From Anolis carolinensis (lineage: Eukaryota), in the NCBI RefSeq assembly GCF_035594765.1, contig NC_085844.1, forward strand, positions 188,310,107 to 188,374,106: 64,000 bases of DNA, given 5' to 3'. The notes beneath the pieces are model-generated. The model did not search any database. It had not been told where the DNA came from and worked only from the letters and a program-made list of their open reading frames with translations. Positions 57,001-60,000 of this stretch are shown one piece after another. The first letter of the stretch is position 1, and each line of letters opens with the position of its first letter. The position numbers and the translations under genes are program-made.

Positions 57001-60000
57001 TAAGGCAGGCTTGCACAACATACAGTGTTGTGATGGAGTCTTCAAGTAGAGATCCTACTAGTTGTATTAGAAGAGGCAGGAAAACTGCTCGTGAGCAAGA
57101 CTCTGATGAGGAGCAACAAAGGAAGAGAATCCGGGAAATACTTATGGAGCCCTCTGATGATGATACCTTTGAGGGTTTTGAAGGGGATTGTGGGACTGGG
57201 AGTCAGGAGGATGAGATGTCAGACTCTGGGAGTGAGGTGATGGATTGGACTAAGGTTCAGGAGATCCGGGAGATTCTTAGGGAAGCCCACAAGCAGTGGT
57301 ACATTTGAGGGATGGCACGGAGAAGATACAGATGGATCCTGGGGAGATATGGGTTTGGATAGAAGGTGGTCTGGCTGGAGAGATCGTAGAAGGGCTGCAG
57401 CTGGAGGTGGGACGTTGGGTGACTCCAGCTCTGATGAGGATTTGCAGCAACCAGCTGTGGATGGAGCGTTGGCTGGCTCAAGTTCAGAGGAGGACTTGTA
57501 GATAAAGGTAAGTTTGTTGCTAATGTAACTTTGCAATCGGCAAGGTGTTTTGTTGGGCGCTTTTCGGGATCTTTGTTTCAGAAGACGTGTTTGGAAGACT
57601 GCTTTGGGACGTAAGTGTTAACCTGGGTTTTTAGTGGCAACGGGGGCTGGCATTGTGTGGGTTTGCGCTGGATTGTCTTGTGTTTGTTTTATGCATTAGC
57701 TGCCGGCTTGCCTCCGTCGCTTTGGCTCTTTGTGTTTACCTTGGACTGGAATTCGGTGACTGTGACTTCTCCCTGATGACTTGGACTGGAACCCGACGCC
57801 TGTGACTTCTCCCTAACGATGCGGACCGGACGTGGTAGCTGTGACTTCTCCTTTTCAACGTGGTTTTGCTTTAGCAACGTTTTGGGGCATTGTGTGGCCG
57901 TTGGTCAATGTGGGTTACTGCTGGTAGCTTTCATGTGTTTGTTTAGCTCCAACCAGCAGGTGGAGCGAGTTTCCAGCCTTTTCAACTAAGTTTGTTTTAA
58001 TCTGGATTATTTCCCAGGATAATCCAGATTATATACCAAGTTTGGGTCTTTTGAATCCTTTTTGGACATTGTTACTTCACACTGAAGAGAAAGTGTTTTG
58101 AGCCTCCTTTTGGTTGTTTCTTAGACTCTTTTGTGTTGTTTTTGCAATAAACTGAGTTGTTTATATTGGCTGCCGTCTGACTCGTAACATACAGCCTGTG
58201 GGCCAGAAGGGTATTGGACTTCCCGTTCCTGTTCAGGCAGGTAAGGAATGGGCCAATCTGTGAAGGGGAAACCCAGGAGCCATTTGCCAGGCTCACGCCC
58301 TTCCCATGGGACTGACATGAACCTGGCAAACCTTGAGGAGCCTAGGCTGCCCCTTTGAAAGTTGGCCCTTCCACTACCTTCCTGGTTCATTTTATGTATT
58401 CATTTGGTGCTAACCCTTTCGATCTATCTATCTGGTTGGAGTTACACTTTTATACATACAAATCCAACTTAAGAAAAAAAAACTTGGGGACTGCCTGTAA
58501 TGGGGAAGATCAAAGGAATGTTAATTACCATATTGGCCTGCCAGGTATCCACATTGACACACCGATCAATGCACCACCAAAAGTCATCCTCTGATTCTCC
58601 TTTCCAGGCAAACACAGCAACACCTAGTGAGGGAAAAATAATCAAACAACCTGTTGTTTTTTTCAAGCAGTAATAATTGATACCCTCTCCTGTTAAGCCC
58701 ATTATTGATACACACGCATATCAAGCTGTTCCTACCCCTACCCACTTCATCTAAGAGCCAGGAGAATACCTGTCTCTGTGTGTAGTACATTTGGAAAAAG
58801 CACTACTGTTGGGGAAGCTGTATAAGATTTCAATAAGTTGTTGGATGGAATGCTTAAGATTCAGGAAAGAATTTCACTCCTTTATTCCTGATTCTTTTCT
58901 TGTTCTTTGTATGACAGATTTAAATGGCAATGTTATTTGAAGGTACATTATCTTTATACAACCAGAAACATTAGGACAGTGATAGCAGACTCTAGTCACT
59001 GACATGTAATTGAAGGTTAAGGCTCAGTCAAACATCTGCTGGTTAAAAATTATACTGTCTTCTCCTGTGACAAGAAAGATTTGGTATTAAAATAATCTGT
59101 ACAGTCTACAAAGTGCTTGGGTATTGTGAAACTATGCAAGTAATAGCAGTTCAGAAACTTCTCATTGGTTTTTAACCATTTTTCAGAGCGTATTCTTCAC
59201 AGAATACACAAAGCACAGAGGATGAAAATTATATGGCATCTCAAGGCTAAAACTATGAAATATACTGTGGCATAAGTTTTCAAAGGCAAAACATACTTGT
59301 AGTATAAATAACCTCAAGCGAAACATGTCCTCTAGCTAAATGTAGCCTCTCCCAGCAAATTCATGGGAGTCTGAACAAGGCTGGCAGAATACTCAACAGC
59401 TTGAACATTTAGAAAAATCAGAAAAAATAGAACAACAATGACATTTATAATGACATTTTTATGCTTTCTGAATTTTCACAATTGGACATAAGAGTTACCA
59501 TGTATTAACTTACAGTAAAATACCTAATACACAGAAATTACAGAATTGTCATTCTCTGTCTTATCTCCCAATTACTCTATACCTTAATCTTTGTCCTATA
59601 GTATATATTTGTGCAAAGCAGCTGTGAGAAATTGCTTCATCCATATCTCTAGATCTAGTTTTATCTGATTCTAGTACACTAACTGATAGATCAGCTAATG
59701 AAACATGAAACTCTGATTTTGTACCTCAGATCAATGATATTTTGCATGACTACCATGCACACACATAATACATTCAATCCCATTTCTTTCATACAACGTT
59801 TTATAATGATTCACATTTTGTGTTCATGAAGTAATCTGGTCCTTCTTTCTAAATTAAAGGCATAACTTTATATTCCAAAAAAACTGTCAAAACCTTACAC
59901 AGTTAATGACAAACTGCAAAATACTGATAACATAGCTTGAGATGTTAAAAAAAGTAAAGAGCTTCAAATGCAGTCAAATAGTTCTTTTGCGCCATTATTT

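Follow-up and report, generated by a model that had tools for sequence, protein, structure and literature searches.

An LTR-encoded integrase tail with a putative LEDGF-binding motif in chromodomain-less Ty3/gypsy elements of Anolis carolinensis

Background

Group A of the plant CRM elements is similar in layout to the Anolis elements reported here. It is a chromovirus lineage without a canonical chromodomain, in which the Pol frame extends into the 3' LTR and encodes there the CR motif, a putative targeting domain (Neumann et al. 2011, PMC3059260; Neumann et al. 2019, PMC6317226). The Anolis lineage resembles it in the missing chromodomain, in the polyprotein that continues into the 3' LTR and in the putative targeting function of this extension. 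CRM group A is, however, a plant clade concentrated at centromeres, whereas the Anolis lineage has a vertebrate host, is self-priming, and carries a tail that has no Pfam match and contains a host-type motif that would point to active chromatin. Neither Pfam nor a search of 1.84 billion representative proteins, in which Anolis was the only named host of the matches, placed the Anolis tail in the CRM group.

The V-clade (Amn/Sushi) chromoviruses, which include Amn-ichi of Anolis and normally possess a chromodomain (PMC2774666), are similar to the elements termed here family A in their Gag and Pol domains, in the SH3_Tf2-1 module and in self-priming, the self-priming type of primer-binding site being a trait of the Tf1/Sushi group (PMC6317226). 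The Anolis lineage differs from them by the lack of the chromodomain and by a longer, unrelated tail that has FxGF units, whereas theirs ends in RRSxR.

Among integrases with a host partner, that of HIV binds LEDGF through its folded catalytic domain, and not through a host-type linear FxGF motif, while the partner of the Ty5 integrase is Sir4. Lentiviral tethering is similar to what we propose below in that integrase uses the same host domain and is thereby directed toward transcribed genes (PMC9987994), but the lentiviral integrase and the Anolis tail show no homology. The C-termini of the Ty1 and Ty5 integrases are similar in other respects, namely a short linear motif in a disordered tail, an adjoining bipartite NLS, and a host tether (AC40 in the case of Ty1) that sets the targets; these are, however, Ty1/copia elements, whose tails are not described there as LTR-encoded (PMC7459421). 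No sequence match between these C-termini and the Anolis tail was found.

POGZ, a domesticated transposase, is one of the host proteins, together with JPO2 (CDCA7L), MLL1, IWS1 and JIL-1, that carry the motif to which we compare the Anolis tail. Like the tail, these proteins combine a helix, an acidic Ser/Thr-rich linker and FxGF within a disordered region (PMC9987994, PMC8022399, PMC6877644), and the published consensus is D/ExExFxGF (PMC8022399). This TND-interacting motif comprises an obligate helix, an acidic linker of 8-16 residues that is phosphorylated by CK2, and an optional FxGF, which matters specifically for LEDGF and HRP2 (PMC9987994). The Anolis linker has 8 residues and is spaced as in JPO2 M1 (PDB 6EMO). 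Unlike the motifs of these host proteins, the Anolis motif belongs to the integrase of a retroelement that is young and multi-copy, and its binding is putative.

Coding sequence overlaps U3 also in HIV and MMTV, where Nef and Sag are separate genes on spliced RNAs. The Anolis frame is instead fused to Pol in families A, C and D, the three families with a readable junction. Pol frames overlapping the 3' LTR are a known kind of feature, and so are integrase tails with linear targeting motifs. In the freely accessible papers searched we found no account of this tail or of FxGF on a retrotransposon integrase; what appears to be new is a putative host-type LEDGF-binding motif on the integrase of a retrotransposon.

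Results and discussion

A full-length element and a solo LTR

The window, i.e. the whole stretch of 64,000 nucleotides of A. carolinensis DNA that was analysed (contig NC_085844.1, positions 188,310,107 to 188,374,106), contains a full-length element of family A and a solo LTR of another family of the same lineage, termed here family B. Their features are as follows:

14462..20342, minus strand: family A element, LTR-gag-pol-LTR, without env and without chromodomain
19410..19420, minus strand: primer-binding site of 11 nt, complementary to LTR nt 455-465 (self-priming type)
18568..19404, minus strand: gag, with Ty3_capsid, DUF4939, Retrotrans_gag and a CCHC knuckle
16712..18607, minus strand: 5' part of pol, with protease, RT and RNase H; pol is interrupted near 16,760 in this copy
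14964..16799, minus strand: 3' part of pol, a single 611-aa frame
14964..15380, minus strand: integrase tail of 138 aa within the 3' LTR; a single helix-linker-FEGF motif lies within 15225-15308
57026..58189, plus strand: solo LTR of family B (chromodomain-less Ty3/gypsy lineage), 1164 bp, TGTT...AACA
57021-57025 and 58190-58194: TACAG, target duplication of 5 bp flanking the solo LTR
57027..57501, plus strand: U3 frame, very probably integrase-tail code, 157 aa when unbroken, interrupted near 57,280 here
57120..57179, plus strand: motif 1, a basic/amphipathic helix, an acidic linker of 8 residues and FEGF (JPO2-like, candidate TND-interacting motif)
57240..57315, plus strand: motif 2, a helix, a linker of 8 residues and FEGW, spanning the break in this copy
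57740..57819, plus strand: two 40-bp tandem units in R/U5, the number of which differs between copies

Elsewhere in the window, at 4399-5115 on the minus strand, a ubiquitin-like frame without introns contains a Tugs domain (UBL4-like) and may be a retrocopy.

The two LTRs of the family A element have 920 bp each and differ at 2 positions (99.8% identity). Its layout is that of the Tf1/Sushi type, with gag followed by PR-RT-RH-IN, the GPY/F (SH3_Tf2-1) module and no env, and the 11-nt match to its own LTR agrees with the self-priming of this group. The 611-aa frame comprises, in this order, the integrase H2C2, rve and SH3_Tf2-1 domains, a linker of 28 aa, the polypurine tract and the LTR peptide down to the stop codon, so that the integrase frame ends in the U3 peptide, which makes up its C-terminal 138 residues. 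A TATA-like box lies just behind the stop codon of the tail, and the inferred RNA start is 30 nt past the box; the whole U3 frame is therefore upstream of the inferred RNA start, and its expression is expected only from the 3' LTR. The gag and pol frames overlap at 18568-18607 in a -1 arrangement. A run of GGGAAAA immediately upstream of the stop codon of gag is a likely frameshift site of the kind found in PEG10.

The first-pass annotation had described the solo LTR as a member of a second, diverged family that keeps the U3 peptide of the first. The difference in length is real (1164 against 920 bp), the similarity of the two types at the DNA level is confined to a 101-nt stretch of U3 with 69% identity, a 17-mer and a 44-mer, and the listed peptide blocks were all found in both LTR types. 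The shared frame also stands, but it opens at LTR nt 2 and not, as proposed, at nt 5; the ATG is at LTR nt 8 in family B (codons V-V-M) and at nt 5 in family A (V-M). The check proposed there, whether the family as such lacks the break of the window copy, gave a clear result: among 30 family B loci examined, 12 have a 157-aa frame that is unbroken and ends at the same point, while the remaining ones are mostly interrupted at other places, so the break near 57,280 represents decay of this one copy. Older family B subfamilies have frames of 159 and 162 aa, which gives a range of 157-162 codons for the family. Located upstream of the inferred start site of the LTR, the frame in the solo LTR of the window is likely silent.

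Five LTR families with different numbers of motif units

Related frames were found in five LTR families, which differ in the number of helix-linker-FxGF units: none in family D, one in A and C, two in B and three in E. The single unit was read in all 30 family A loci and in 22 of 25 loci of family C. Family B has motif 1 in 50 of 50 loci and both units in 41 of 50, and it is this unit 2 that corresponds to the second FEGW motif reported in the first-pass annotation. Family E, which was found by a motif-profile search of 1.84 billion proteins (4 matches), has three units (FEGF, FLGF or FMGF, and FVGF) in 25 of 42 loci, the rest being decayed. It is represented by abundant, older solo LTRs (L173-L214) with a frame of about 205 aa. 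Family D, finally, shows no FxGF in any of the 25 loci read and has nevertheless been amplified with its full tail, hence the motif is dispensable for transposition. Two FYGF matches, one in a family C locus and one in a locus of a chromodomain family, were taken as chance. Copies are spread along the large chromosomes. Family A also forms head-to-tail tandem arrays, one comprising L074-L078 (G000:C4:80.50-80.52 Mb) and the other at C2:200.84-200.86 Mb, with a spacing of about 5.2 kb and 4.05 kb.

Chromodomain-bearing relatives and taxonomic range

The family A element gave no Pfam Chromo match, only the 28-aa linker being present between SH3 and the LTR, and its U3 tail gave no Pfam match of any kind. 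As V-clade elements normally carry a chromodomain, we infer loss rather than original absence. In an unrooted integrase tree of 18 copies, all of them from Anolis, a long branch parts the chromodomain-less from the chromodomain-bearing elements (family D rests there on 117 bp and is poorly placed); between the best-aligned copies of the two groups the integrase core is ~49% identical.

Pol also reads past the polypurine tract in the chromodomain-bearing elements of Anolis (30 loci, L215-L244, e.g. G000:C12:11368011) and in one chromovirus protein from Podarcis (P0012), which makes the readthrough into the LTR a trait of the whole group. Their tails, in Anolis and in Podarcis alike, are unrelated to those described here and end in RRSxR, which may resemble nucleosome acidic-patch anchors. 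None of the tails read from the 30 Anolis loci has FxGF, but the Anolis tails contain an acidic E-N-[LM]-G-F block, perhaps a relative of FxGF.

Protein searches (8, 11 and 4 matches) revealed no relatives of the tail outside Anolis. The two non-Anolis proteins in the search with 11 matches are covered over SH3 only, and 3 of the 4 tail-profile matches among the 1.84 billion representatives are named A. carolinensis. The ESM Atlas gave no usable match to the tail.

Similarity of the motif to partners of LEDGF

A comparison of a single family A tail half with 177,635 PDB sequences gave 6EMO (LEDGF IBD-JPO2 M1) as the top match, with an E-value of 0.54, which is not significant; the tail half of family B alone gave no match to PDB sequences. 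The alignment with 6EMO is gap-free across the helix end, and DIF, PSD and FxGF are identically spaced in both. A profile of 14 motif units reached E=0.0019 for the same 6EMO chain, a value that is partly circular, since the units had been cut out by a pattern requiring F.G[FW] and informed by the JPO2 motif. The strict motif occurs in 1-2 of 200,000 shuffles and in none of 113,904 background residues.

The linker has 8 residues in 14 of 14 aligned units. Its acidity is strong in the first unit but weak in the unit that comes last in families B and E, motifs 2 and 3 being poorly acidic. F, G and the second aromatic residue of FxGF are kept throughout, and the variable position is occupied by E, L, M, V, I, F, K or D. 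AlphaFold predicts a disordered tail (mean pLDDT 56.9) with a sole helix at residues 24-36, for which pLDDT is 70-90 over 15 residues in a prediction from a shallow, 9-row alignment; this predicted helix ends where the JPO2-like segment begins. The tail therefore displays the elements of the published TND-interacting motif, i.e. a predicted amphipathic helix, an acidic linker of 8 residues, FxGF and a context that is predicted to be disordered. Anolis itself encodes PSIP1/LEDGF and has a second IBD locus. At L169 (G000:C2:143718346) there is also a processed pseudogene of PSIP1/LEDGF, whose IBD is interrupted by one stop. We consider the putative binding of the tail to a LEDGF-type domain rather likely.

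Proposed mechanism and insertion sites

We lean, on balance, toward a mechanism in which the integrase tail binds LEDGF/HRP2 through its helix-linker-FxGF motif and tethers integration to active chromatin. Pol reads through the polypurine tract and ends just before the U3 TATA-like box, an arrangement by which every LTR, solo LTRs included, carries the tail code. The frame is under purifying selection (see below), and four of the five families have one to three motif units, in which F, G and the second aromatic residue are fixed and x is free. After processing of Pol, integrase would bear a disordered tail of 140-205 residues, whose motif units would dock on the domain of LEDGF/p75 or HRP2 that binds integrase, with CK2 modulating the binding by phosphorylating the serine-acidic linkers, and whose basic clusters would serve nuclear import, as in Ty1. 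The PWWP domain of LEDGF/HRP2, by reading H3K36 methylation, would then bring the integration complex onto transcribed chromatin. Such tethering would replace the chromodomain that is absent from the lineage, and biased integration would follow. Whether the tail has a role in target choice is, in our judgment, evenly balanced.

Small chromosomes are gene-dense. At the level of whole chromosomes, insertion did not look gene-directed: outside the six large chromosomes we counted 3 of 146 rows of family A as against 10 of 150 in the chromodomain family (p=0.09, in the opposite direction), and the GC content of flanks does not differ among families B, C and D, both measures being coarse proxies shaped by later selection. 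The absence of a visible bias at this level speaks for a different role of the tail, which we regard as possible, if rather unlikely: it may act mainly as a nuclear-import signal or an acidic spacer, or bind another TND protein (TFIIS, IWS1, Elongin A, Mediator), or serve retention on chromatin or escape from silencing, target choice being unaffected. Two basic clusters, 12 residues apart, are indeed invariant across all aligned families including D, which thrives without FxGF, and the LEDGF model does not account for the conserved W residues or for the acidic stretch at the C-terminus of the tail. The MDW, DPW and EDL blocks may resemble the kinesin W-acidic, AP-2 DPW and TPR-clamp motifs. 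In the integrase tail of Ty1, too, a bipartite NLS is combined with an acidic linker (PMC7459421). A nuclear-import role leaves unexplained, however, the repeated helix-x8-FxGF units with their free x, and the specific importance of FxGF for LEDGF/HRP2 (PMC9987994) also speaks against this alternative.

Fusion of the U3 frame to integrase

The tethering mechanism involves the U3 peptide as a part of integrase, and in this lineage the peptide is almost certainly the C-terminal tail of that protein. In a search with SH3 and the tail, the tail ends a Pol frame of at least 1209 aa in about 106 of 146 scored places, a number that was counted by hand and is a lower bound, obtained with a query that favours in-frame junctions. 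The in-frame fusion was also seen in the subfamilies A2 and A3, in family C (L066, L067), in family D (L098) and in L065, a sister copy of family B. An early ATG is present in family A and occupies codon 3 in 50 of 50 copies of family B, but it was found in 0 of 23 copies of family C and 1 of 24 of family D, and there is none at the start of the family E frame, which argues against an independent gene. The parallel with Nef and Sag drawn in the first-pass annotation, as far as it implied a separate protein, therefore fails for families A, C and D, where the frame is fused to Pol, the last two being without an early ATG.

In four contig sets (library type unconfirmed) mapped on the full element, no joint leading into the beginning of the U3 frame was supported. 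Two of the four are much deeper over about 14,855-16,230, i.e. the 3' half of integrase plus U3, contigs being of a kind that cannot show starts, ends or levels. A subgenomic product was suggested by 261-aa gene models that consist of SH3 and the tail, but P0173, the one checked of four such models, matches its own contig exactly, and the frame of that copy is interrupted upstream (330 aa), so that a broken copy explains this model. Since each LTR holds the tail code, it is understandable that solo LTRs of the lineage have a protein-coding appearance and that the tail peptide turns up in some Anolis gene models. In the models P0005, P0007, P0010, P0011, P0142, P0143 and P0159 pieces of the element are fused to CR1, LINE or host sequence; these are likely annotation artefacts, exonisation being possible.

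For family B we also hold the U3 peptide to be an integrase tail, with high but somewhat lower confidence, as in each of the two internal copies found the frame is lost at the polypurine G-run and other breaks are present, so that the fusion is deduced and not read directly. Pol stops in both of them at the LTR edge, and in the same frame; together with the ATG in codon 3, and with the fact that 42 family E loci yielded solo LTRs and no internal region, this would fit a separate accessory protein in family B and perhaps in E, produced e.g. by stop-restart at the overlapping TGATG of the LTR edge or from a subgenomic RNA. We find this improbable. The fusion in A, C, D and the B-sister copy L065 and the lack of an early ATG in C, D and E speak against it, the length of the G-run is unequal between the two family B copies and slips also in the A3 copy L081, whose siblings are in frame, and both family B copies carry further breaks.

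Selection on the U3 frame

Pairs of single natural copies representing three subfamilies of family A, the young family, gave dN/dS values for the U3 frame of 0.15 (95% CI 0.07-0.26), 0.23 (0.12-0.38) and 0.23 (0.13-0.39), compared with 0.02-0.04 for the integrase core and 0.30-0.58 for the linker in the same pairs. The values between families A and B (0.16-0.47) are merely indicative, because synonymous sites are near saturation and the alignment was guided by the protein. Among the 50 copies of family B, non-CpG changes private to one copy (159 nonsynonymous or stop against 51 synonymous) look neutral, and changes common to at least 3 copies are shifted to 29 against 21 (Fisher p=0.014 against private); for families C and D, where shared changes are few, this comparison did not reach significance. 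Two indels at the level of family B subfamilies measure 9 and 6 nt. The dN/dS of 0.15-0.23 and the shift between private and shared changes bear out the earlier proposal of purifying selection on a protein encoded in U3, and the recurrence of related frames in five LTR families, with dN/dS well below 1, likewise supports its view of a lineage-wide feature rather than a chance ORF.

The dS in the tail (0.55-0.95) is about half of that in the integrase core (1.2-2.0), indicating that constraint at the DNA level or exchange between LTRs acts as well. That a promoter or enhancer constraint on DNA, with no protein, would account for the whole conservation of U3 is scarcely credible despite this lower dS, since the upper bounds of the U3 dN/dS are below 0.4, third codon positions are the most diverged, pN/pS is ~1 or above in frames that do not share those third positions, and the subfamily indels are of 9 and 6 nt. 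Neither of the two outcomes that the first-pass annotation had named as contrary to its proposal, a dN/dS near 1 or equal conservation of synonymous sites, was seen, and the promoter-only reading is largely refuted.

Conclusions

The lineage may have exchanged a heterochromatin-reading chromodomain for an LTR-encoded mimic of the JPO2/MLL1-type motif, with a grip tuned by 0-3 copies of the unit, and may in this way have reached LEDGF/p75 independently of HIV and with a different binding mode; we give this scenario about the same weight as its negation. The interaction of LEDGF with integrase has been called lentivirus-specific (title of reference 79 in PMC9987994). If the proposal is true, the Anolis elements would represent a second, independent route to LEDGF, the tether used by HIV. 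A single genome holds chromodomain families along with families that have 0, 1, 2 and 3 motifs, i.e. a natural series on the choice of the tether, which would make the guidance of LTR retrotransposon insertion in a vertebrate testable directly from existing insertions.
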